In this document: piece after piece, positions 1 through 40,400 of the stretch
Layout: the number at the start of each line of letters is the position of its first letter
How positions within the stretch are numbered: position 1 is the stretch's first letter
Sequence record: OP172784
Strand: one strand, 5' to 3'
DNA: 64,000 nt
Source of the DNA: Escherichia phage ECO07P1
Notes under the pieces: generated by a model
The model's database searches: none
The model's input: the letters and a program-made list of their open reading frames with translations, nothing else
What the model was told of the DNA's origin: nothing
Position numbers and translations under genes: made by a program

Positions 1-2498
1 GAGATTGGATGAAGCGAATGGAAGACATCGGTCTCGAAGCTCTCGGTATGAACGATTTTAAACTCGCTTATATCAGTGATACATATGGTTCAGAAATTGT
101 TTATGACCGAAAATTTGTTCGTGTAGCTAACTGTGATATTGAGGTTACTGGCGATAAATTTCCTGACCCAATGAAAGCAGAATATGAAATTGATGCTATC
201 ACTCATTATGATTCAATTGACGACCGTTTTTACGTCTTTGATTTGTTGAATTCAATGTACGGTTCAGTATCAAAATGGGATGCAAAGTTAGCTGCTAAGC
301 TTGACTGTGAAGGTGGTGATGAAGTTCCTCAAGAAATTCTTGACCGAGTAATTTATATGCCATTTGATAATGAGCGCGATATGCTCATGGAATATATTAA
401 TCTCTGGGAACAGAAACGACCTGCTATTTTTACTGGTTGGAATATTGAGGGATTTGACGTTCCGTATATCATGAATCGTGTTAAAATGGTTCTCGGTGAA
501 CGTAGTATGAAACGTTTCTCTCCAATCGGTCGAGTAAAATCTAAACTAATTCAAAATATGTACGGTAGCAAAGAAATTTATTCTATTGATGGCGTATCTA
601 TTCTTGATTATTTAGATTTGTACAAGAAGTTCGCATTTACTAATTTGCCATCATTCTCTTTGGAATCAGTTGCTCAGCACGAAACCAAAAAAGGTAAATT
701 GCCGTACGATGGTCCTATTAATAAACTTCGTGAGACTAATCATCAACGATACATTAGTTATAACATCATTGACGTAGAATCAGTTCAAGCAATTGATAAA
801 ATTCGTGGGTTTATCGATCTAGTTTTAAGTATGTCTTATTACGCTAAAATGCCTTTTTCTGGTGTAATGAGTCCTATTAAAACTTGGGATGCTATTATTT
901 TTAACTCATTGAAAGGTGAACATAAGGTTATTCCTCAACAAGGTTCGCACGTTAAACAGAGTTTTCCAGGTGCATTTGTATTTGAACCTAAAGCGATTGC
1001 TCGTCGATACATTATGAGTTTTGACTTGACGTCTCTGTATCCGAGTATTATTCGTCAGGTTAACATTAGTCCTGAAACTATTCGTGGTCAGTTTAAAGTT
1101 CATCCAATTCATGAATATATCGCAGGAACAGCTCCTAAACCGAGTGATGAATATTCTTGTTCTCCGAATGGATGGATGTATGATAAGCATCAAGAAGGTA
1201 TCATTCCAAAGGAAATCGCTAAAGTATTTTTCCAGCGTAAAGATTGGAAAAAGAAAATGTTCGCCGAAGAAATGAATGCCGAAGCTATTAAAAAGATTAT
1301 TATGAAAGGTGCAGGGTCTTGTTCAACTAAACCAGAAGTTGAACGATATGTTAAGTTCAATGATGATTTCTTAAATGAATTATCGAATTACACCGAATCT
1401 GTTCTTAATAGTCTGATCGAAGAATGTGAAAAAGCAGCTACACTTGCTAACACAAATCAGCTGAACCGTAAAATTCTTATTAACAGTCTTTATGGTGCTC
1501 TTGGTAATATTCATTTCCGCTACTATGATTTGCGAAATGCTACTGCTATCACAATTTTTGGTCAAGTTGGTATTCAGTGGATTGCTCGTAAAATTAATGA
1601 ATACCTAAATAAAGTATGTGGAACTGATGGTGAAGATTTCATCGCGGCGGGTGATACTGATTCGGTATATGTTTGTGTAGATAAAGTTATTGAAAAAGTA
1701 GGTCTTGACCGCTTTAAAGAACAAAATGATTTAGTTGAATTCATGAATCAGTTCGGTAAGAAAAAGATGGAACCTATGATTGATGTTGCATATCGTGAGT
1801 TATGTGATTATATGAATAACCGCGAGCATCTGATGCATATGGACCGTGAAGCTATTTCTTGTCCTCCGCTTGGTTCAAAGGGTGTTGGTGGATTTTGGAA
1901 AGCGAAAAAACGTTATGCTCTGAATGTTTATGATATGGAAGATAAGCGATTTGCTGAACCACATCTAAAAATCATGGGTATGGAAACTCAACAGAGTTCA
2001 ACACCAAAAGCAGTACAAGAAGCTCTCGAAGAAAGTATTCGTCGTATTCTTCAGGAAGGCGAAGAGTCTGTCCAAGAATACTATAAGAACTTTGAGAAAG
2101 AATATCGTCAACTTGACTATAAAGTTATTGCTGAAGTAAAAACCGCGAACGATATAGCGAAATATGACGATAAAGGTTGGCCAGGATTTAAATGCCCGTT
2201 CCATATTCGTGGTGTGCTAACTTATCGTCGAGCTGTTAGTGGTTTAGGTGTAGCTCCAATTTTGGATGGAAATAAGGTAATGGTTCTTCCATTGCGTGAA
2301 GGAAATCCATTTGGTGACAAGTGCATTGCTTGGCCATCGGGTACGGAACTTCCAAAAGAAATTCGTTCTGATGTACTGTCTTGGATTGACTACTCAACTT
2401 TGTTCCAAAAATCGTTTGTTAAACCGCTTGCGGGCATGTGTGAATCGGCTGGCATGGACTATGAAGAAAAAGCTTCGTTAGACTTCCTGTTTGGCTGA
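1..2498 (+). CDS. 43: DNA polymerase gp43, 5'-truncated at window edge (C-terminal ~830 aa)
   Basis: Open frame from window start to TGA 2496-2498; family-B polymerase motifs (SFDLTSLYPSII, KILINSLYGALG, AAGDTDSVYV); recognisably T4 gp43. Confidence 0.95.
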   Translation, partial: DWMKRMEDIGLEALGMNDFKLAYISDTYGSEIVYDRKFVRVANCDIEVTGDKFPDPMKAEYEIDAITHYDSIDDRFYVFDLLNSMYGSVSKWDAKLAAKLDCEGGDEVPQEILDRVIYMPFDNERDMLMEYINLWEQKRPAIFTGWNIEGFDVPYIMNRVKMVLGERSMKRFSPIGRVKSKLIQNMYGSKEIYSIDGVSILDYLDLYKKFAFTNLPSFSLESVAQHETKKGKLPYDGPINKLRETNHQRYISYNIIDVESVQAIDKIRGFIDLVLSMSYYAKMPFSGVMSPIKTWDAIIFNSLKGEHKVIPQQGSHVKQSFPGAFVFEPKAIARRYIMSFDLTSLYPSIIRQVNISPETIRGQFKVHPIHEYIAGTAPKPSDEYSCSPNGWMYDKHQEGIIPKEIAKVFFQRKDWKKKMFAEEMNAEAIKKIIMKGAGSCSTKPEVERYVKFNDDFLNELSNYTESVLNSLIEECEKAATLANTNQLNRKILINSLYGALGNIHFRYYDLRNATAITIFGQVGIQWIARKINEYLNKVCGTDGEDFIAAGDTDSVYVCVDKVIEKVGLDRFKEQNDLVEFMNQFGKKKMEPMIDVAYRELCDYMNNREHLMHMDREAISCPPLGSKGVGGFWKAKKRYALNVYDMEDKRFAEPHLKIMGMETQQSSTPKAVQEALEESIRRILQEGEESVQEYYKNFEKEYRQLDYKVIAEVKTANDIAKYDDKGWPGFKCPFHIRGVLTYRRAVSGLGVAPILDGNKVMVLPLREGNPFGDKCIAWPSGTELPKEIRSDVLSWIDYSTLFQKSFVKPLAGMCESAGMDYEEKASLDFLFG

Positions 2499-2511
2499 TA
2501 GAATAAATCTA

Positions 2512-2531
2512 GGGACCTCCAGGTCCCTTTT
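2512..2531 (+). terminator. GC hairpin (gggacct/aggtccc) plus T-run after gene 43
   Basis: Inverted repeat followed by TTTTT directly after stop codon. Confidence 0.5.
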
Positions 2532-2615
2532 TCATACAAGTAATATAAATCTATACTTATGAAAAAGAGATGATTCTGGACCCTTTGGATTCCCTAAAAA
2601 TTTTTTCACAAAACT

Positions 2616-2645
2616 GTTTACAAGACCGTTACTCTGTGGTACTAT
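2616..2645 (+). promoter_or_regulatory. T4-type early promoter (GTTTAC, 18-bp spacer, TACTAT)
   Basis: GTTTAC at 2616-2621, -10 TACTAT after TGTGG; A/T-rich upstream tract. Confidence 0.45.
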
Positions 2646-2679
2646 ACAACTATCAACTAATACGGATTTGGAGAATGAA

Positions 2680-3060
2680 ATGAAAATCGCTATTTTGGTT
2701 ATTGCATTAGGTCTTACTGGTTGTGTAGCTCAAGGACCAGTAGTAAATCAGTCTGATGCAGGAAAAATTGTAAACTGTTCAAGCAAATTTTATAATCCTA
2801 ACGTCAAGTGTTATAAAGAGGCTCCAAAACAGACAGTAGAACAAATGCAGGCGAATTTTGACGAAGCTATTCGTCCAGATGAATCTGCTCAAGCATATCG
2901 TAATTCAGATGTAATTACACGCGAAGAAAAAATTGAAAGCTACTGCGCTGAACTTTGGGCTAATTGGGCTAATAATTATCAATGGCGTACTGGTAAAAAT
3001 GCTCCAATGGAGTATGTAGTGAATTCTTATAATTCATGTGTAAAAAATTTGACTAAGTGA
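2680..3060 (+). CDS. Putative lipoprotein (signal peptide with LTGC lipobox), conserved T4-like small ORF
   Basis: ATG at 2680 with GGAG SD (track ORF starts at upstream TTG 2668); N-terminal MKIAILVIALGLTGC. Confidence 0.5.
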   Translation: MKIAILVIALGLTGCVAQGPVVNQSDAGKIVNCSSKFYNPNVKCYKEAPKQTVEQMQANFDEAIRPDESAQAYRNSDVITREEKIESYCAELWANWANNYQWRTGKNAPMEYVVNSYNSCVKNLTK

Positions 3061-3067
3061 GGAAAAC

Positions 3068-3319
3068 ATGGAAACTTTAGTAGCAGGTTCAATTTTTATG
3101 GTTTTAGTTTCAGGCGTGTTGGCTATTATTATATACATGCTTCCATGGTTCATCGCCTTGATGCGTGGGTCAAAATCGACAGTAGGAATCTTTTTCACAT
3201 CTTTACTGTTTAACTGGTCAATTATTGGTTGGTTTATTACATTTATTTGGTCAATTGCAGGTGAAACTAAAAAGTCTGCGCAGCCAAATCAGGTAATTAT
3301 CATCAGAGAGAAGGAATGA
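3068..3319 (+). CDS. imm: Imm, superinfection immunity membrane protein (83 aa)
   Basis: 83-aa two-TM protein matching T4 Imm in length and position between 43 and 42. Confidence 0.8.
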   Translation: METLVAGSIFMVLVSGVLAIIIYMLPWFIALMRGSKSTVGIFFTSLLFNWSIIGWFITFIWSIAGETKKSAQPNQVIIIREKE

Positions 3320-3465
3320 AAAGCAAAATTATAGCAGCATTGCTTTTAATCTTGATGATTATAATAAGTATATACTATAGTGTAACGGTTCCTTGTATGA
3401 TTCCAACTATTATTTTAGGTTGGGGTTTATTACTGTTACAAGTTAAATATGAATGTATCAATTGA
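3316..3465 (+). CDS. Small hydrophobic membrane peptide (49 aa)
   Basis: ATG overlaps imm stop (ATGA); below the ORF-track size cutoff; hydrophobic throughout. Confidence 0.3.
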   Translation: MKSKIIAALLLILMIIISIYYSVTVPCMIPTIILGWGLLLLQVKYECIN

Positions 3466-3472
3466 GGTTTAA

Positions 3473-4213
3473 ATGATTAGTGACTCTATGACAGTTGAAG
3501 AAATCCGTCTTCATTTGGGAACTGCATTAAAGGAAAAAGATTTCGTAGTTGATAAAACTGGTGTTAAAACTATTGAAATTATTGGCGCATCATTTGTAGC
3601 AGATGAACCGTTTATTTTTGGCGCTCTTAATGATGAATACATTCAGCGTGAACTTGAATGGTATAAATCTAAGAGCTTGTTCGTTAAAGATATTCCGGGT
3701 GAAACACCGAAGATTTGGCAACAAGTAGCATCTTCTAAAGGTGAAATTAACTCAAATTATGGTTGGGCTATCTGGTCAGAAGATAACTATGCCCAGTATG
3801 ATATGTGTTTAGCTGAACTTGGTCAAAATCCTGATTCTCGACGTGGTATCATGATTTATACTCGTCCATCTATGCAGTTTGACTACAATAAAGATGGCAT
3901 GTCAGATTTCATGTGTACTAATACAGTACAGTACCTGATTCGTGATAAGAAAGTCAATGCAGTAGTAAGCATGCGCTCAAATGACGTGGTCTTCGGATTC
4001 CGTAATGATTATGCATGGCAAAAATACGTATTAGATAAATTAGTATCTGATTTGAATGCCGGCGATTCAACTCGTCAGTATAAAGCAGGTTCTATTATAT
4101 GGAATGTTGGAAGTCTTCATGTATATTCTCGTCATTTTTACTTGGTTGATCATTGGTGGAATACTGGCGAAACTCATATTGTGAAAAAAGATTATAATGG
4201 TGAGTGGAAATGA
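3473..4213 (+). CDS. 42: dCMP hydroxymethylase gp42 (246 aa)
   Basis: 246 aa, near-identical to remembered T4 gp42 (MISDSMTVEEIRLHLG...). Confidence 0.95.
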   Translation: MISDSMTVEEIRLHLGTALKEKDFVVDKTGVKTIEIIGASFVADEPFIFGALNDEYIQRELEWYKSKSLFVKDIPGETPKIWQQVASSKGEINSNYGWAIWSEDNYAQYDMCLAELGQNPDSRRGIMIYTRPSMQFDYNKDGMSDFMCTNTVQYLIRDKKVNAVVSMRSNDVVFGFRNDYAWQKYVLDKLVSDLNAGDSTRQYKAGSIIWNVGSLHVYSRHFYLVDHWWNTGETHIVKKDYNGEWK

Positions 4214-5052
4214 TTCAATTCGTAATTCCAAGTTATCAGCGTGTCGGGGCAGTTTCTGCCCTTAATATGTTTCCGACTGATTATGAACCCCATATTGTAG
4301 TGCGTGAACATGAAGAAAAAGCTTATTATGATGCTTATGGGTCTAGAGCTAAAATTATAGCTATTCCTGATGATGTTAATGGAATTGCCGGTACTCGTAA
4401 AGCAATTACTGATATGTATGCAGGTCAACGAATCTGGATGATTGATGATGATACTACTATTCGTATGAGTTCAATACGAAAGAGAGACGATAAACGGCGC
4501 GTAGATAAAATTAATCAATTAACTCGTGAACAGTTCTATGAATTGATTCAATACGTTGAGGATGCCATGGATTGCGGGTATTATCATGGCCATGCTCGTC
4601 TACCAATTTTTAAAATTACTTCATCTTGGGGTAATTATCGTGAAAACTCATATGGATTCACGAATACATGGTATGACCTCGGAAAACTTACGACAGAACA
4701 AATTGGGTATGGAAAAATTGATTTATGCGAAGATATGTATGCATTTCTCAATTTAATTAATCAAGGTTATCCGCATTTGGCCTTGTTCAAATATCTAGTT
4801 GTATCTGGAAAATCACACGCTCCCGGTGGGTGTAGTTCAATTCGTAGTAATTCTAAACATAATAGAGCGCTTGAGCAAATCAATAGAGAGTTTCCAGAGC
4901 AAGCTCGTTGGAAAACATCGAATATTGAAAAACGAAAATCGTTGGGTGAAGAAGATGAGCCATTAAAAGTTCTTCGCATGTGTGTTTCGCGTAAAGAAAA
5001 ATCAGAAGCGTTTCATAAGTTTAATGCTATTCATCCAATAGCAGTTGATTAA
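4210..5052 (+). CDS. Putative hydroxymethylcytosine glucosyltransferase, T2/T6 beta-glucosyl-HMC-alpha-glucosyltransferase type (280 aa)
   Basis: ATG at 4210 overlaps gene 42 stop (track ORF uses GTG at 4204); occupies the T4 beta-gt locus between 42 and uvsX; IWMIDDDTT acidic motif; 280 aa is the size I recall for T2/T6 beta-alpha-gt. Confidence 0.55.
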   Translation: MIQFVIPSYQRVGAVSALNMFPTDYEPHIVVREHEEKAYYDAYGSRAKIIAIPDDVNGIAGTRKAITDMYAGQRIWMIDDDTTIRMSSIRKRDDKRRVDKINQLTREQFYELIQYVEDAMDCGYYHGHARLPIFKITSSWGNYRENSYGFTNTWYDLGKLTTEQIGYGKIDLCEDMYAFLNLINQGYPHLALFKYLVVSGKSHAPGGCSSIRSNSKHNRALEQINREFPEQARWKTSNIEKRKSLGEEDEPLKVLRMCVSRKEKSEAFHKFNAIHPIAVD

Positions 5053-5129
5053 TGCCTAAATTTATTGTGTTATAATTACCCTATCTTTAACCAGTGAGGA
5101 AAATATAATGATGCCTATGGAAAAAATGA

Positions 5130-6311
5130 ATGTCTATTGCAGATTTAAAATCCCGTTTGATTAAAGCTTCCACTTCTAAAATGACTGCTGAACTGACTAC
5201 ATCTAAATTCTTTAATGAAAAGGATGTAATCCGTACAAAAATCCCAATGCTTAATATCGCTATTTCCGGTGCGATTGATGGCGGTATGCAGTCTGGTTTA
5301 ACTATTTTTGCAGGTCCTTCTAAACACTTTAAATCAAATATGTCTTTGACTATGGTTGCGGCGTATTTGAACAAATATCCGGACGCGGTTTGTCTATTTT
5401 ATGATAGCGAATTTGGTATTACTCCAGCTTATTTGCGATCCATGGGAGTTGACCCGGAACGAGTAATTCATACACCAATTCAGTCAGTTGAACAACTGAA
5501 AATTGATATGGTGAATCAGCTTGAAGCGATTGAGCGTGGTGAAAAAGTTATTGTATTCATCGACTCAATTGGTAATATGGCTTCCAAGAAAGAAACGGAA
5601 GATGCCTTGAATGAAAAATCTGTGGCAGATATGACTCGTGCTAAATCACTGAAGTCATTATTCCGTATTGTTACTCCTTATTTTAGTATTAAAAACATTC
5701 CATGCGTTGCGGTTAACCATACAATTGAAACAATTGAAATGTTTAGTAAAACCGTGATGACAGGTGGTACAGGCGTAATGTATTCGGCTGATACTGTATT
5801 CATTATCGGTAAGCGCCAGATTAAAGATGGTTCTGATCTTCAGGGGTATCAATTTGTTCTAAATGTAGAAAAATCTCGTACCGTCAAAGAAAAAAGTAAA
5901 TTCTTTATTGATGTTAAATTTGACGGTGGTATCGATCCTTATTCTGGATTATTAGATATGGCTCTTGAATTAGGATTTGTAGTAAAACCTAAAAATGGCT
6001 GGTATGCTCGTGAATTTCTTGATGAAGAAACCGGCGAGATGATTCGCGAAGAAAAATCTTGGCGTGCAAAAGATACCAATTGCACTACATTCTGGGGTCC
6101 TTTATTTAAACATCAGCCATTCCGAGATGCTATTAAACGTGCTTATCAGTTAGGTGCTATTGATAGCAATGAAATTGTTGAAGCTGAAGTTGATGAATTA
6201 ATTAACTCAAAGGTTGAAAAATTTAAATCTCCAGAAAGTAAAAGTAAATCAGCAGCTGATTTAGAAACTGACCTAGAACAGTTAAGTGATATGGAAGAAT
6301 TTAATGAATAA
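5130..6311 (+). CDS. uvsX: UvsX recombinase (RecA-like)
   Basis: 393 aa, near-identical to remembered T4 UvsX. Confidence 0.95.
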   Translation: MSIADLKSRLIKASTSKMTAELTTSKFFNEKDVIRTKIPMLNIAISGAIDGGMQSGLTIFAGPSKHFKSNMSLTMVAAYLNKYPDAVCLFYDSEFGITPAYLRSMGVDPERVIHTPIQSVEQLKIDMVNQLEAIERGEKVIVFIDSIGNMASKKETEDALNEKSVADMTRAKSLKSLFRIVTPYFSIKNIPCVAVNHTIETIEMFSKTVMTGGTGVMYSADTVFIIGKRQIKDGSDLQGYQFVLNVEKSRTVKEKSKFFIDVKFDGGIDPYSGLLDMALELGFVVKPKNGWYAREFLDEETGEMIREEKSWRAKDTNCTTFWGPLFKHQPFRDAIKRAYQLGAIDSNEIVEAEVDELINSKVEKFKSPESKSKSAADLETDLEQLSDMEEFNE

Positions 6312-6648
6312 AGATGATTTAGATTTAGATCTAGAAATTATCGACGAATCCCCCTCTTCGGAGGGGGAAGAAGAAAGAAAAGAACGCCTTTTTAATGAAT
6401 CTCTTAAGATAATTAAATCTGCCATGGAAAATGTTATCCAGGAGATTGTCATTAAACTAGAAGACGGTTCTACACACATTGTGTATGTGACAAAATTAGA
6501 TTGGGTTGATGGAAAAGTCGTAATGGACTTTGCTGTTCTTGACCAAGAAAGAAAAGCTGAGTTAGCTCCTCATGTAGAAAAATGTATTACAATGCAACTA
6601 CAAGATGCATTTAATAAAAGGTCAAAGAAAAAATTTAAATTCTTTTAA
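6304..6648 (+). CDS. 40: gp40 head assembly protein
   Basis: ATG at 6304 overlapping uvsX stop; alternative upstream ATG at 6286; position between uvsX and 41. Confidence 0.6.
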   Translation: MNKDDLDLDLEIIDESPSSEGEEERKERLFNESLKIIKSAMENVIQEIVIKLEDGSTHIVYVTKLDWVDGKVVMDFAVLDQERKAELAPHVEKCITMQLQDAFNKRSKKKFKFF

Positions 6649-6657
6649 GGAGTAAGT

Positions 6658-8085
6658 GTGGTAGAAATTATTCTTTCTCATCTCATATTTGATCAAGCTT
6701 ATTTTTCAAAAGTTTGGCCATATATGGATTCAGAATATTTTGAAAGTGGTCCAGCTAAAAATACATTCAAATTAATTAAATCTCATGTTAATGAGTACCA
6801 TAGCGTTCCATCTATTAATGCGTTAAATGTTGCATTAGAAAATAGTTCATTTACTGAAACAGAATATTCTGGTGTAAAAACACTTATTTCAAAACTAGCT
6901 GATTCTCCAGAAGACCATAGCTGGTTAGTAAAAGAAACAGAAAAATACGTTCAGCAAAGGGCGATGTTTAATGCTACGTCTAAAATAATTGAAATTCAAA
7001 CTAATGCTGAGCTTCCTCCGGAAAAACGAAATAAGAAAATGCCAGATGTAGGTGCTATTCCTGACATCATGCGTCAAGCATTATCAATTTCATTTGATAG
7101 CTACGTTGGCCATGATTGGATGGATGACTACGAAGCACGTTGGCTATCTTATATGAATAAAGCTCGTAAGGTTCCATTTAAACTCAAAATTCTAAATAAA
7201 ATTACTAAAGGCGGAGCTGAGACTGGAACACTGAACGTTTTAATGGCTGGTGTTAACGTTGGTAAGTCATTAGGATTATGTTCATTAGCAGCAGATTATT
7301 TACAGCTCGGACATAATGTTCTTTACATTTCCATGGAAATGGCAGAAGAAGTCTGTGCTAAGCGTATTGATGCTAATATGCTTGATGTTTCTCTTGATGA
7401 CATTGATGATGGACATATTTCTTACGCTGAATATAAAGGAAAAATGGAAAAATGGCGTGAGAAATCTACTCTCGGTCGTTTAATCGTTAAACAGTATCCT
7501 ACTGGTGGAGCAGACGCTAATACATTTCGATCGCTTTTAAACGAATTAAAGCTCAAGAAGAATTTTGTTCCAACAATCATTATTGTCGACTATCTAGGTA
7601 TTTGTAAATCTTGTCGCATCAGAGTTTATTCAGAAAATAGTTACACAACTGTTAAAGCTATCGCAGAGGAATTGCGTGCTCTGGCTGTTGAAACCGAAAC
7701 TGTTCTTTGGACCGCAGCACAAGTTGGTAAGCAAGCTTGGGATTCTTCTGATGTTAACATGAGCGATATTGCAGAATCTGCCGGTCTTCCAGCAACAGCC
7801 GATTTTATGCTTGCGGTCATTGAAACCGAGGAGTTAGCAGCGGCTGAACAGCAACTCATTAAGCAAATCAAATCACGATATGGCGATAAGAATAAATGGA
7901 ATAAGTTTTTGATGGGTGTTCAAAAAGGAAATCAAAAATGGGTAGAAATTGAGCAAGATTCTACTCCAACCGAAGTGAACGAAGTAGCAGGTTCACAGCA
8001 GATTCAGGCTGAACAGAATCGCTATCAAAGAAATGAATCTACTCGAGCCCAGTTAGATGCTTTAGCAAATGAATTAAAATTTTAG
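6658..8085 (+). CDS. 41: gp41 replicative DNA helicase (DnaB-like), GTG start
   Basis: 475 aa; Walker A GVNVGKS; GTG start with GGAG SD; matches T4 gp41. Confidence 0.95.
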   Translation: MVEIILSHLIFDQAYFSKVWPYMDSEYFESGPAKNTFKLIKSHVNEYHSVPSINALNVALENSSFTETEYSGVKTLISKLADSPEDHSWLVKETEKYVQQRAMFNATSKIIEIQTNAELPPEKRNKKMPDVGAIPDIMRQALSISFDSYVGHDWMDDYEARWLSYMNKARKVPFKLKILNKITKGGAETGTLNVLMAGVNVGKSLGLCSLAADYLQLGHNVLYISMEMAEEVCAKRIDANMLDVSLDDIDDGHISYAEYKGKMEKWREKSTLGRLIVKQYPTGGADANTFRSLLNELKLKKNFVPTIIIVDYLGICKSCRIRVYSENSYTTVKAIAEELRALAVETETVLWTAAQVGKQAWDSSDVNMSDIAESAGLPATADFMLAVIETEELAAAEQQLIKQIKSRYGDKNKWNKFLMGVQKGNQKWVEIEQDSTPTEVNEVAGSQQIQAEQNRYQRNESTRAQLDALANELKF

Positions 8086-8114
8086 TTTACAAGCTGACAA
8101 GACTATGGTATAGT
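8085..8114 (+). promoter_or_regulatory. T4-type early promoter upstream of dmd
   Basis: GTTTAC 8085-8090, 18-bp spacer, TATAGT 8109-8114. Confidence 0.45.
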
Positions 8115-8142
8115 AGTCTTGTTGGTTAAATGAGGAGATGTT

Positions 8143-8325
8143 ATGGAATTGGTAAAGGTAGTTTTTATGGGGTGGTTTAAGAATAAAAGCATGTTTACTA
8201 AAGAAATCACAATGATGAAAGATGACGTTCAATGGGCTACTACTCAATATGCTGAAGTTAATAAAGCATTAGTTAAAGCTTTCATTGATGGCAAGAAAGT
8301 ATGTGAAGTTGATTGTCGAGGGTAA
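8143..8325 (+). CDS. dmd: Dmd, antitoxin against host RnlA/LsoA (60 aa)
   Basis: 60 aa matching remembered T4 Dmd (MELVKVVFMGWFKN...). Confidence 0.85.
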   Translation: MELVKVVFMGWFKNKSMFTKEITMMKDDVQWATTQYAEVNKALVKAFIDGKKVCEVDCRG

Positions 8326-8326
8326 T

Positions 8327-8563
8327 ATGCATATTGTTTTATTTAAACCTACTCCGTATAATGTCAGGAAAAATACTCAATTCAAAGCACTTGTTGCAGA
8401 TACGTGGGAATTGGTGTTAGATATTCCACCAGAAGAAAGTCCTCCATCTGGTCGAGTGGAATTTATTAAGTTTGCTGTGCGCCCTACGAAGCGACAGATT
8501 CGCCAATGCAAAAGATACTTTCGTAAAATCGTCAAGTTAGAGAAACAGTTATTGATGCAGTAA
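8327..8563 (+). CDS. Hypothetical protein (T4 61.4 region)
   Basis: ATG at 8327 with GAGGG SD right after dmd stop; track ORF starts at 8285. Confidence 0.45.
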   Translation: MHIVLFKPTPYNVRKNTQFKALVADTWELVLDIPPEESPPSGRVEFIKFAVRPTKRQIRQCKRYFRKIVKLEKQLLMQ

Positions 8564-8570
8564 AATAGTA

Positions 8571-8600
8571 GTTTACAAGCTGATAGAGTTGTGTTATAGT
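8571..8600 (+). promoter_or_regulatory. T4-type early promoter
   Basis: GTTTAC 8571-8576, 18-bp spacer, TATAGT 8595-8600. Confidence 0.45.
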
Positions 8601-8631
8601 AATTCTATCAGCTAATCGCGGAGAAAAGAAA

Positions 8632-8886
8632 ATGATGCTAGTTAATAGAGAATATCAGTTTAAATCAGAAGAAGATTTGGAAAAATTCGCAAGTGGTTGT
8701 GAACTGAATAGACGCACAGCTAAAGTCATAGGATTAAAACCCTTTACAGTTCTAGATTGTGAAGTTTCTAAATTCCGCAGAGGGTGTTCTATTAGCGGTC
8801 ATGCTCTGGTTGATGGGAACACATTTTTCTTTGTTTTTAGCGTCAGAGAACTTTTATTGATTAACGAACTTGAGGAAATAAAATAG
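8632..8886 (+). CDS. Hypothetical protein
   Basis: 84-aa ORF with GGAG SD. Confidence 0.45.
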   Translation: MMLVNREYQFKSEEDLEKFASGCELNRRTAKVIGLKPFTVLDCEVSKFRRGCSISGHALVDGNTFFFVFSVRELLLINELEEIK

Positions 8887-11327: not shown

Positions 11328-11978
11328 GTGAATTACCAAAAAATTTACTCGGCTTTAATTACAAAAGCTAAATGCCGGCATCTTGGTGGATATAAAGAAC
11401 GCCATCATATAATTCCTAGATGTATGGGAGGAGCAGATGACAAAAACAATCTTGTTGAGTTAACTGCGCGTGAGCATTTTATAGCTCATAGATTATTAAC
11501 CAAAATATATCCAGATGTGAGAGGATTGCATTATGCTGTAAATTTAATGCGATATAATAAAGGTGTTAAATTAACAAGTAGATTAATAGAAACCCTTAAA
11601 ATTCAAAACTCTGTTCTTTTCTCGGGTGAAAATAATCCTAGATATGGCAAGCCGTCATGGATTAAAGGCAAAAAGACCCCAGAAGAAACTAAAGCCAAAA
11701 TGCGTCTAGCTCATAAAGGTAAAATTATATCCGATGAAGCCAAGGCTAATATGAGTAAAGCCCGAAAAGGAAGATTTAGCGGTAAAAATTCACCTCGATA
11801 TGGTTTACCGAATCCAAGACGTGGTGAGATATGGAATTCGTATGATTCGCTTTACGAGTTGTGGGTTTATAATAATAGACCTAAGCGCACAAAATTTAAT
11901 AAAATAGCTGTCAAGGCAGGTTATCCTAATATCTGCTATAGACATATGATAGAAAACTTCATAAGAAAGGAAAAATAA
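11328..11978 (+). CDS. Free-standing HNH homing endonuclease (216 aa), GTG start
   Basis: HNH motif ERHHIIPRCMGGADDKNNLVELTAREHFIAH; repeated NPRYG-type DNA-binding repeats; AAGGA SD before GTG. Confidence 0.8.
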   Translation: MNYQKIYSALITKAKCRHLGGYKERHHIIPRCMGGADDKNNLVELTAREHFIAHRLLTKIYPDVRGLHYAVNLMRYNKGVKLTSRLIETLKIQNSVLFSGENNPRYGKPSWIKGKKTPEETKAKMRLAHKGKIISDEAKANMSKARKGRFSGKNSPRYGLPNPRRGEIWNSYDSLYELWVYNNRPKRTKFNKIAVKAGYPNICYRHMIENFIRKEK

Positions 11979-15645: not shown

Positions 15646-16244
15646 AATATTCAGCAATGCAATTAAAAGATTTTAAAATCAAATCAATGGATGCATCGGT
15701 GCGTGCTTCTATTCGTGAAGAATTACTTTCTGAAGGATTTAATTTATCCGAAATTGAACTTTTAATTCATTGTATTACTAATAAGCCAGACGATCATTCT
15801 TGGTTAAATGAAATAATCAAATCTCGTTTGGAACCAAACGATAAACCTCTTTGGAGAGGTGTTCCAGTTGAGACTAAGCAGGTGTTAAATCAAGGAATTG
15901 ATATTATTACATTTGATAAAGTAGTATCAGCTTCATATGATAAAAATATAGCTCTACATTTTGCTTCTGGATTAGAATACAATACACAAGTTATTTTTGA
16001 ATTCAAAGCTCCTATGGTATTTAATTTCCAGGAGTATGCTATAAAAGCTCTACGTTGTAAAGAATATAGTCCAAGTTTTAAGTTTCCAGATAGCCATCGC
16101 TATCGTAATATGGAATTAGTTTCAGATGAACAAGAAGTAATGATACCAGCTGGAAGTGTATTTAGAATTGCGGATAGATATGAGTATAAAAAGTATTCAA
16201 CATACACTATCTATACTCTTGACTTTGAAGGATTTAATCTATAA
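15642..16244 (+). CDS. modA: ModA ADP-ribosyltransferase (200 aa)
   Basis: R-S-E ART signature (LWRGV, SASYD, EQEVMIP); paralogue of the upstream gene. Confidence 0.7.
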   Translation: MKYSAMQLKDFKIKSMDASVRASIREELLSEGFNLSEIELLIHCITNKPDDHSWLNEIIKSRLEPNDKPLWRGVPVETKQVLNQGIDIITFDKVVSASYDKNIALHFASGLEYNTQVIFEFKAPMVFNFQEYAIKALRCKEYSPSFKFPDSHRYRNMELVSDEQEVMIPAGSVFRIADRYEYKKYSTYTIYTLDFEGFNL

Positions 16245-19983: not shown

Positions 19984-20484
19984 ATGAAAATTTATCGTGT
20001 TGAATCATCTTTTAGTATTCTTAATTATGAAGATGCTATAACAATACGTCGAAATCTTTGTGTTCAAATAACGCCGTACAGGAGTATAATAGATTCATGG
20101 AGCGAAGAGTGGTTATTACACGTAGGTTATGATAGACCTAATTTTATGCATCATAGCGATAATAATAAAAGAATTCCTTTACCACACGAAGATAAACTAT
20201 TAGTTAAAAACGCTAATATAGTAATTAATACTAAGTTCAAGAAAGATTATGTTGGAGTAGAATATCATATTCCCGGATGGTTTATAGGTCTTTATCATTT
20301 TGCTTTCGCTAGTGAATATGATATGATGAGATGGTTCACACGAGAAGAGCGTGAAGAATTAGCTTCTAAAGGATTTTATCTTGCTGTATACGAAGTTCCT
20401 GAAGATGAAGTTATAATTGGCGGACACCAAGTAATGTTCCGTAAATCGCATGCTGAATTAAAAGGCTTTATTACTTTAGGCTAA
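19984..20484 (+). CDS. Hypothetical protein (166 aa; possibly MotB-like by position)
   Basis: ATG at 19984 with GAGGA SD; track ORF starts at TTG inside the promoter. Confidence 0.45.
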   Translation: MKIYRVESSFSILNYEDAITIRRNLCVQITPYRSIIDSWSEEWLLHVGYDRPNFMHHSDNNKRIPLPHEDKLLVKNANIVINTKFKKDYVGVEYHIPGWFIGLYHFAFASEYDMMRWFTREEREELASKGFYLAVYEVPEDEVIIGGHQVMFRKSHAELKGFITLG

Positions 20485-20494
20485 AGAGAAAATC

Positions 20495-20929
20495 ATGATT
20501 AAAATTAATACTGTTTACAAATTGAAAAAATCCCCTAAAATTGATTTATCAACAATGTCTAATACGACTTATGGTAAGTTTTGGGACCTTCTTGGTGTAA
20601 CTTATGGGTATCCTTTTACTGTTATTAGCGTTAATAGCGGAATTCTTATTGGTACAGTGTACATGGAAATTAGAAACTATCATGGAACAGTATCATCATT
20701 TATCATCTATGAAGAAGATTTTAATCTATTGACAGAAATTGAAAAACCTGAAGATCCGACTGATTTGTTGTGTAAGGCGGTTTACATTCGTCGTCCATTT
20801 GCGAATCCGATTGGTGGTTGGGTAACTGACCAATGGATTGAAGATGGCGTTGAACTTCTTAATGTAGTTCATGCTGGAGAATACTCTGTAGTTCCTCGCA
20901 GCGCAGTGATTAATGTTCGTGTAAGCTAG
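20495..20929 (+). CDS. Hypothetical protein, paralogue A (C-terminal TDQWIEDGV domain)
   Basis: 144-aa ORF; C-terminus shares a roughly 35-aa motif with the next gene. Confidence 0.5.
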   Translation: MIKINTVYKLKKSPKIDLSTMSNTTYGKFWDLLGVTYGYPFTVISVNSGILIGTVYMEIRNYHGTVSSFIIYEEDFNLLTEIEKPEDPTDLLCKAVYIRRPFANPIGGWVTDQWIEDGVELLNVVHAGEYSVVPRSAVINVRVS

Positions 20930-37402: not shown

Positions 37403-40400
37403 TTATGCTAAACGAACGATATAGTTAAAAGCAATGTTTTTAACCGTGTTTTCTGTATTACCTGTACTATTTACAGTGATAGTATGACCATGCGAGCCAA
37501 TTGCTACCGTGTGGGTATGAGCACCGATACCTACAGTATGGGTATGAGCACCAATACCTACTGTGTGAGCATGGTTACCCGTAGCGCTAGTAGTTCCTGA
37601 CCAACTATGGGTGTGGGCACCGTCTGAAGAAGTTTTGGCCATATTCGACGCTGCAGTAGCACCGCTCACGGTTCCAGTGATTTTAGCGTTGCCGTTTGGA
37701 CCTGCACTATTGTATCCATCATAGAATATGCTAGTGGGTATGCCGCCTTGCATCTGAGGGCCTGAACGAGCGTGTTGGTGCGCACCAGCGGAACTAGTAT
37801 TACCACTCACTGTATGGCTATGGTTGCCGGTGGTATTACTGGTCTTAGTACCATAATCAAAGCTTGAAGTCGTTTTGCTACCGTAATCAAAACTTGATGT
37901 GGTTTTAGTACCTAAGTCAGTACTTGAAGCCGATGCACTATGGCTATGAGCCTTAACACCATCTTCTTCTGCGCTCAAAACATCACGACCACTTGGTTTA
38001 CCCTTGATAGTTTGCCCGCGCATATCAGGCAGAGAGCCGGAAGGATACACCGCAGCTAACTTAGGATACAAGCCAACATCAAATGTTTGACCTTCCATTA
38101 TGGCATAACCTTCAGGAGGTGTATCAGTAGGCCAAGGAATCGGAGCTCCAATAGGATAACTTGAAACAATATCAGTTTTAAGTGATTCAATCGTACTGTT
38201 TAAGTTAGCAAAATTACCAGAACCACCAGTAATATTACCATCAGTACCAAGAGTAGCAGCACCGGCAATAATTTTACCAGGTGTGCGGAAGTCACCGGTA
38301 CGACGGAATTCCCAACTTATATCGGTTCCGGTAGTACTAGTACCTTGGTGATAATGGACACGGAAGTCTCCTTGGGCAATTAAGGTACCAATAGAATAAG
38401 TACTATCACCCTTTACATACCGTTGTTTAACAATAGGAATGTATTCAGAAGTAGCAGTACGCTCTATATTCATATAAATTGGAGCTCTTACGTTTACATC
38501 GTTCTGAGATGCAAAGGAACCACAACCCGTTGGGCGAACTCCATCAGAAGCCTCAATATCTATATAAGCATTTTGTCCTAATTGCATTCTAAAGTTGGCA
38601 TTAATGCGAGAGTTACTATTTATAGTAGTTAAAGCATTATTTTGATCTACTATAAAAGAATCTCTTCCTAACCCAACCATGCCATCGTTTAATCCTATTC
38701 TCACAGGTCTCAAAGAGCTGTGAATGTCTCCGCTTTCGCCTTCATTTTGATTGGTTGGAATAATATAGAAGTTGGCTTCTGAACGACGGAAAATAGCGCC
38801 ATATTCGGAATTCCAAATTCTTAATGCATTAGCAGTTCCACCAATTTTTACTTGGCCGGTAATAGAAGAACCACCTTGGACAAACAAACCGTTAGACATA
38901 GTAACATTGCCACCGAAAGAACCTGTACCGGAGGCACTTATATTTCCAAGGCCTATGATATGACCTGTTTCGACAGTTCCGTTAAATTTAAAGTTAACCG
39001 GACCTACCGTTTGACCTGATGCAGGATTAGTACGTTGAGCGTAAAAATAATAACCTTGCCCATCAGCTACTTCAAAAACGGTTTCACGACTACGATCACC
39101 AGATGCGTTAAATGAATTACCCCACACTTTAACTGTAACAGGGCTTTTGTTTTGACCTGAGCGTGTGCCACTATTCCAGTATATGCTTCTAGTACCATCT
39201 ACAGCCGTCGGAGCATTAAATTGGAATCCCTGATTATCAGGTCCATCAATAATTATACCTTTATTAAGACGAAAAGCTAATGTAGAATCAATATTACCTG
39301 TTGCAGCGTTAAAGCTAATACTGTTAGCACCGGTTACTAGTTTAAGAATACCCGGGTTAACTTCCATGCCTTCTTGAGTATTAATATTAGTTTTGCCTTT
39401 ACCACGGAAATAGTGGTTCATTTTACCGCCTGAGTTATAGCCAATATGTGTCTGGCCGTCTCCACCAGTGTTTCCATCAGCTTGTGTTTGAACCGATAAA
39501 AAGGCAACGTTGGTTCCAGGCATAATCCATGTTGTGCCTTGATCTTCTGAGCGTCCAAATAATGCTTTACGTGTACTACGGAAACTGTCAGGAGTAATAG
39601 AAGCAACAGAATATCCACCGCCAACTAGATCAAATACACCGGTTTTTTTGTATGACAAGCCAGTTACAGTGTCACCGAGAACAAGATACTTATCGCCCAT
39701 TACACCGACGTTACCATAATCACTAGACGGGAAATCTGCAGTGAATGTACCTAATGCAAGGCTATTACGCCCAGCCATTCGGCCGTCGTTACGAATACCA
39801 TATTGTTTAGATGATGGAGTATTACCCGTCCACCAAGACATTTCATCTGCTTGGCCAGTCTGAGCTGTACAGATTTCATGCCACATGGTTCCGGCAGCTT
39901 TAGCGCGAACTTTACGAAGATAGTTTATACCGTTTGTTTCACCGGTTCCAGGATAAACATAGTTAACCAAAGATTGAGAATCATATTGCCCAAAGGCTTT
40001 GGCATCGTGAATAACAGTATCAACCGCAATGCGTTTAGTTACTAACGAATCTGATGCTAAAATACGGTTAGCTTGAAATTCACCGCCGTTTATAGAACGG
40101 AAATAGAATTCGCTATTAATAATGCTTCCGGTTCCTTGTCTAACTCTAAGACGTATTTCACCGTCAGTTGTAGTTTGAGGACGAGCATATATAACGCCTC
40201 GTTCAATGCCATCGGCATTTTCAAACCAAAGATGGGCATTGGAAGTATCATTTGAGGCTCTTGTATAAAATGAACCTTGTGTAGATCTGAAAACTTTTGC
40301 AGTTATGCCTTCAGTAGAACCAATAGGTCCATTTACGGTCATTCCACCAGTTTGTACATAATCGCCGTTTAATTTCAAAAGACCATTGATAGTCACATTT

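Follow-up and report, generated by a model that had tools for sequence, protein, structure and literature searches.

The gene lying between gene 42 and uvsX in the 64,000-nt stretch of Escherichia phage DNA analyzed here (hereafter the window) is identified with high confidence as ba-gt (ggt) from a Tequatrovirus of the T2/T6 kind. Its 280-aa product would add a second glucose to glucosylated hydroxymethylcytosine (hmC), giving gentiobiosyl-hmC, with a mixed ratio of mono- and di-glucosylated bases as the likeliest outcome. This is an ordinary T2/T6-type configuration, correctly recognized and already known; the cloning and sequencing of the T2 and T6 ba-gt genes reportedly date from the early 1990s. 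The identity, position, family and fold of the protein and the gene complement around it come from the present analysis, while the chemistry and the defence phenotypes have been demonstrated by others on close orthologues. The presence of EL-type alleles of both glucosyltransferases in this phage is the sole detail that goes beyond the literature.

Positions 1–25052 of the window match the Escherichia phage ECO07P3 (OP172786.1) with 0 mismatches, and positions 39001–64000 agree with that record at 100% identity, in a match that runs across the ends of the record. The record describes ECO07P3 as a Tequatrovirus with E. fergusonii as its host and human faeces as its source. The window together with three further stretches of ECO07P3 was used for whole-genome tblastn searches. 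The features discussed below are collected in Table 1.

Table 1. Features of the ba-gt locus and the partner glucosyltransferase gene (window positions unless marked as local to ECO07P3).
Feature	Coordinates	Strand	Remarks
gene 43 (DNA polymerase)	9..2498	+	cut off by the window start
gene 42, dCMP hydroxymethylase	3473..4213	+	PF00303, 58 bits; 96.3% identity to T4 gp42
predicted mRNA structure over GGUGAG (4199-4204) and AUG (4210)	4198..4270	+	MFE -26 kcal/mol
ba-gt / ggt, 280-aa beta-glucosyl-HMC-alpha-glucosyltransferase	4210..5052	+	TAGT family; predicted GT-A fold; stop included
D79-D80-D81, DxD-type motif within IWMIDDDTT	4444..4452	+	follows predicted strand 74-78
E174-D175 within LCEDMYAF, where an inverting GT-A enzyme may have its catalytic base	4729..4734	+	
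uvsX, downstream flank marker	5130..6311	+	
alpha-gt, acceptor supplier	ECO07P3 local 7659-8861		full length, 400 aa; PF11440, 839.6 bits

A sequence-only reading of this DNA had placed a 280-aa ORF with an acidic IWMIDDDTT motif between gene 42 and uvsX, and the list of open reading frames and the identities of the neighbours confirm it, with the motif at residues 75–83 (nt 4432–4458). The ORF called by the program begins six nucleotides earlier at a GTG codon (4204..5052, + strand, 282 aa); the ATG at 4210, which public records take as the start (CDS of 843 nt), gives the protein MIQFVIPSYQRVG...IHPIAVD, terminated by TAA at 5050–5052. The same reading was also right in placing a 351-aa beta-glucosyltransferase (beta-gt) between genes 42 and uvsX in T4, an interval that in T4 additionally holds the homing endonuclease gene segA. 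In the window, the 77-bp spacer between ba-gt and uvsX (5053–5129) lacks this insertion. Compared with its relatives, the gene differs synonymously at 20–30 codons and non-synonymously at 3–10; because the differences are mostly synonymous, ba-gt is a real gene under purifying selection.

We did note that the ECO07P3 record (OP172786.1) labels this gene (local coordinates 20001–20843) as a hypothetical protein. Its upstream neighbour, gene 42, encodes a protein of the thymidylate synthase family according to its profile match, and gp42 is called a thymidylate synthase in many records, such errors and omissions having spread through the annotations of T4-like phages.

The start of ba-gt is closely tied to the end of gene 42, with the TGA stop codon of the latter overlapping the ATG of the former (ATGA, 4210–4213, read from the sequence), and a Shine–Dalgarno-like GGTGAG (4199–4204) lies ahead of this ATG within gene 42. 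The predicted mRNA structure that covers both signals is considerably more stable than expected by chance (-15.2 ± 3.0 kcal/mol in shuffled sequences, z = -3.6) and is followed by a 7-bp G+C-rich hairpin (4246–4262, within codons 13–18 of ba-gt) that was also flagged by a terminator-like scan. The stop/start overlap and the unusually stable structure at the ribosome-binding site and AUG suggest that translation of ba-gt is coupled to that of gene 42, a coupling that the RNA structure possibly enforces. A promoter scan of positions 2400–6500 returned 16 sites, no more than the 17.6 that chance would give, and so carries no information on transcription.

The identity proposed in the sequence-only reading, a beta-glucosyl-HMC-alpha-glucosyltransferase of the T2/T6 type, is supported at the protein level. 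The product is 96% identical over its entire 280 aa to its counterparts at this locus in T2 (AP018813) and T6 (AP018814; tblastn, 95.7% identity, E = 2e-174), and the order 42-X-uvsX is common to the window, T2, T6, EL and Solly. It matches PHROG 842, annotated as beta-glucosyl-HMC-alpha-glucosyltransferase, at 2.5e-87, and the Pfam family PF20691 (TET-associated glycosyltransferase, TAGT) with 41.3 bits, above the gathering threshold of 27.5. The latter match spans residues 3–207 of the protein and positions 2–205 of the 205 in the profile, leaving the C-terminal 70 residues outside the family model. At the DNA level, the gene is present in at least 476 phage records, all but two of these at ≥90% identity; at the protein level, 688 records give a match. 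Among the latter are more distant homologues from phages of Klebsiella, Enterobacter, Citrobacter and Salmonella (a group at 60–65% identity) and of Serratia (47%).

A search of PDB sequences with the 280-aa protein returned only chance matches, all with E > 1, and hence no solved relative is detectable by sequence. A search of a large protein collection gave 10 clusters of homologues, from which nine full-length sequences were taken into an alignment, and the resulting AlphaFold2 model reached a pLDDT of 74 and a pTM of 0.76. Confidence is highest over the N-terminal 120 residues (pLDDT 80–95), with ill-defined loops at residues 131–140 and 192–210. The model predicts a single-domain, Rossmann-like GT-A fold in which the DxD-type acidic motif directly follows a core beta-strand, so that the fold, too, is that of a glycosyltransferase. 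In this it resembles the GT2-like GT-A enzymes BcsA, TarP, GalNAc-T and GnT-I, which likewise carry an acidic motif after a beta-strand; identity to solved GT-A enzymes is, however, just 9–18%, and the acceptor of the 280-aa enzyme differs in being a sugar on duplex DNA. The three aspartates (D79, D80 and D81) are invariant in the nine homologues, down to 47% identity, and from general knowledge of GT-A enzymes they form a putative site for a divalent metal and the diphosphate of UDP-glucose. E174 and D175, which open helix 174–184 of the model, are also invariant in the alignment and may constitute the catalytic base region.

The gene complement of ECO07P3 provides the remaining components of the T2/T6 pathway. 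Whole-genome tblastn found one alpha-glucosyltransferase gene (alpha-gt) and one TAGT gene, with no homologue of the T4-type beta-gt at E ≤ 0.01 and no Dam homologue. The alpha-gt gene lies outside the window, ~11.1 kb upstream (position 1 of the window corresponds to local position 15792 of ECO07P3). Given the close identity of its gp42 to that of T4, the modified base in this phage is expected to be hmC. As known for T2 and T6, gp42 would make 5-hydroxymethyl-dCMP, such that hmC replaces cytosine in the phage DNA, and alpha-gt would then place an alpha-linked glucose on ~75% of the hmC. The 280-aa GT-A enzyme would in turn move a second glucose from UDP-glucose to the 6-OH of the first, forming the beta-1,6 linkage of gentiobiosyl-hmC. 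For this last step, PMC13216743 cites Lehman & Pratt 1960 and Kuno & Lehman 1962, and PMC11078745 is a further source. A GT-A enzyme that yields a beta linkage from UDP-alpha-glucose would be an inverting transferase, probably metal-dependent through the DDD motif.

In a genome without beta-gt, the DNA is expected to hold 5hmC, alpha-glucosyl-hmC and gentiobiosyl-hmC and no beta-glucosyl-hmC. Observations on close relatives agree with this. Deletion of ba-gt in T6 leaves alpha-glucosyl-hmC only, with gentiobiosyl-hmC gone (PMC11078745), and LC-MS of Durham phages with enzymes 97–99% identical to that of the window detected gentiobiosyl-hmC and found beta-glucosyl-hmC absent (PMC13390438). The T2/T6 ba-gt genes occupy the same slot, share the DDD motif and are partnered by alpha-gt without beta-gt; the T2 product is also 280 aa.

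What the locus shares with T4 is its map position between gene 42 and uvsX, and on this one might suppose a diverged or truncated T4-type beta-gt. We give this almost no credence. BLASTP between the T4 enzyme and the 280-aa protein returned only chance fragments (best E = 4.1), and PF20691 was found where the beta-gt profile, PF09198, gave no match at E ≤ 1. The T4 enzyme (351 aa, PDB 1JG7) has a two-domain GT-B fold (PMC13216743), whereas the model is of single-domain GT-A type, and the two proteins are unrelated in sequence and fold. Their acceptors and products also differ: T4 beta-gt acts on bare hmC in DNA to give mono-beta-glucosyl-hmC, while ba-gt acts on alpha-glucosyl-hmC. Both use UDP-glucose as the donor, and both are inverting enzymes that form a beta linkage. 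A T4-type identity is thus refuted by profile search, BLASTP and fold model alike, and the sequence-only reading, which had set the protein apart from T4 beta-gt and recommended a fold prediction, stands, since BLASTP gave no similarity to the T4 enzyme and the fold is that of a glycosyltransferase. [quoted passage not shown] This is very improbable here, given that phages with 96–99% identical enzymes hold only 5hmC, alpha-glucosyl-hmC and gentiobiosyl-hmC, that T6 deleted for ba-gt loses nothing but the second glucose, and that the genome has an intact alpha-gt and a gp42 of the T4 type rather than a 5-hydroxy-dCMP synthase. The DNA arabinosyltransferases of Mosigvirus (RB69, Bas46/47, NP) are comparable, by description, in that they too catalyse a second glycosylation step, which in these T-even-like phages leaves a modified cytosine carrying a disaccharide; their pathway differs in using 5-hydroxycytosine, arabinose and a cluster of arabinose-precursor genes, where ECO07P3 has a T4-type gp42 and alpha-gt. 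We discarded the arabinosyl-5-hydroxycytosine pathway for this phage, a Tequatrovirus with a 96.3% T4-like gp42 and alpha-gt present.

A less drastic alternative accepts the T2/T6-type enzyme and has it work at a low, T2-like level, leaving only a few percent of gentiobiosyl-hmC in mainly mono-alpha-glucosylated DNA that would differ from T4 DNA chiefly by its free 5hmC and lack of beta-glucosyl-hmC. The precedent is T2 itself, whose enzyme is 96% identical to that of the window, yet whose DNA holds ~5% gentiobiosyl-hmC against ~72% in T6 (PMC13390438). As the T2 and T6 enzymes are themselves near-identical (~96–98%), the presence of the gene does not set the extent of di-glucosylation. We nonetheless consider low-level activity unlikely in this phage. 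The T2 protein (AP018813, local 3283–4125, - strand) has a histidine at position 11, where arginine is invariant in nine aligned members of the family, along with a P251S substitution, which could underlie the low gentiobiosyl-hmC of T2; the window protein retains both R11 and P251. Moreover, six of the six Durham phages compared, with their 97–99% identical enzymes, have large gentiobiosyl fractions.

The Durham Tequatroviruses with alpha-gt and TAGT fall into two modification classes by LC-MS in a 2026 study (PMC13390438). EL, BGP and Geo have 5hmC, alpha-glucosyl-hmC and gentiobiosyl-hmC in a ratio of ~1:2:2, while Solly, TB37, CP and others have ~1/3 5hmC and 2/3 gentiobiosyl-hmC. We compared the TAGT proteins of six of these phages (Some and QOTSP were left out, Some contributing its alpha-gt only) and noted that I89, K95, R97, I101, S202 and H203 are common to the window protein, EL, BGP and Geo, where Solly, CP, TB37 and T2 have M89, R95, C97, V101, A202 and Q203. 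In the model, the first four positions belong to the hairpin that immediately follows the DDD motif, and the last two to the flexible 192–210 loop. The window TAGT is 98.9% identical to those of EL, BGP and Geo, with three substitutions; from the T2 record it differs by 10, comprising the six residues above, N19, A51 and the two positions already described. The alpha-gt of ECO07P3 is likewise of the EL type (97.3% identity to EL vs 92.5% to CP, TB37 and Some). As both glucosyltransferases are EL-type, we predict a mixed mono- and di-glucosyl pattern rather than the near-complete one of T6, with a ratio of ~1:2:2 most likely in this phage.

The two alpha-gt alleles differ at ~30 of 400 residues, clustered at 47–60 and 221–298, and co-vary with both the two TAGT haplotypes and the two Durham modification classes. 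The TAGT haplotype and the LC-MS class correlate perfectly in the six phages, a correlation confounded by these alpha-gt alleles and by shared ancestry; EL, BGP and Geo are close relatives of one another. With this in mind, we offer only as a speculative and rather doubtful proposal that the extent of di-glucosylation is a tunable trait encoded by ba-gt alleles, in which the haplotype seen here would reduce conversion, the M89 R95 C97 V101 A202 Q203 haplotype would make it near-complete, and R11H could explain the gap between T2 and T6. A mixed pattern of this kind might hedge against defences directed at a single sugar state.

Two T6 records carry lesions of their own that the window protein does not share. 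In AP018814 (local 2501–3340, + strand) one aspartate of the DDD motif is lost in frame, leaving 279 aa, and in MH550421 (local 3138–3985, - strand) codon 10 is an amber TAG and the annotated CDS starts only at M20 (261 aa), with the DDD motif kept. Laboratory stocks of T6 may thus differ in ba-gt status. We considered whether the DDD motif is dispensable, or whether loss of one aspartate explains the high activity of T6, and dropped both ideas, given MH550421 retains the motif and the variants look specific to a stock or record.

Elsewhere in the window, the slot between the primase gene 61 and the dCTPase gene 56 holds a 216-aa ORF (11328–11978, + strand) that is homing-endonuclease-like, with a NUMOD3 match of 29.3 bits (above the cut-off) and weak HNH matches. 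EL, BGP and Geo differ in having a restriction-enzyme-like gene and dam in this slot, dam being absent from ECO07P3, and Solly has nothing there.

The sequence-only reading further expected a different sugar pattern to bring a different sensitivity to glucose-dependent restriction, and both are documented for close relatives of this phage (PMC13390438, PMC11078745), from which its own behaviour may be anticipated. Loss of ba-gt heightens the sensitivity of T6 to the Brig1 glycosylase, which in vitro degrades the DNA of T2, T4 and the T6 ba-gt deletion mutant and not that of wild-type T6 (PMC11078745). Brig3 restricts T2, T6 and Bas35-45 via the ~25% of hmC left unglucosylated, and GmrSD-type enzymes attack both stereoisomers of glucosyl-hmC as well as gentiobiosyl-hmC. 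Judging from these relatives, the alpha-glucosyl-hmC of this phage would make it sensitive to Brig1 and its free 5hmC to 5hmC-directed defences such as Brig3, while its gentiobiosyl-hmC would resist degradation by Brig1, as it does in vitro, and be targeted by GmrSD-type enzymes.

In a survey of 753 phage genomes, alpha-gt and beta-gt occurred together in only six, and the majority of sequenced T4-like coliphages had the alpha-gt and TAGT configuration, making T4 the unusual one (PMC13216743). The phage studied here thus belongs with the common T-even phages that carry alpha-gt and TAGT, rather than with the rare class of T4, which carries alpha-gt and beta-gt. In practical terms, the gain is a corrected annotation of a "hypothetical protein" and a testable prediction of the hmC sugar pattern, which would help in matching therapeutic phages to hosts whose defence systems are known.
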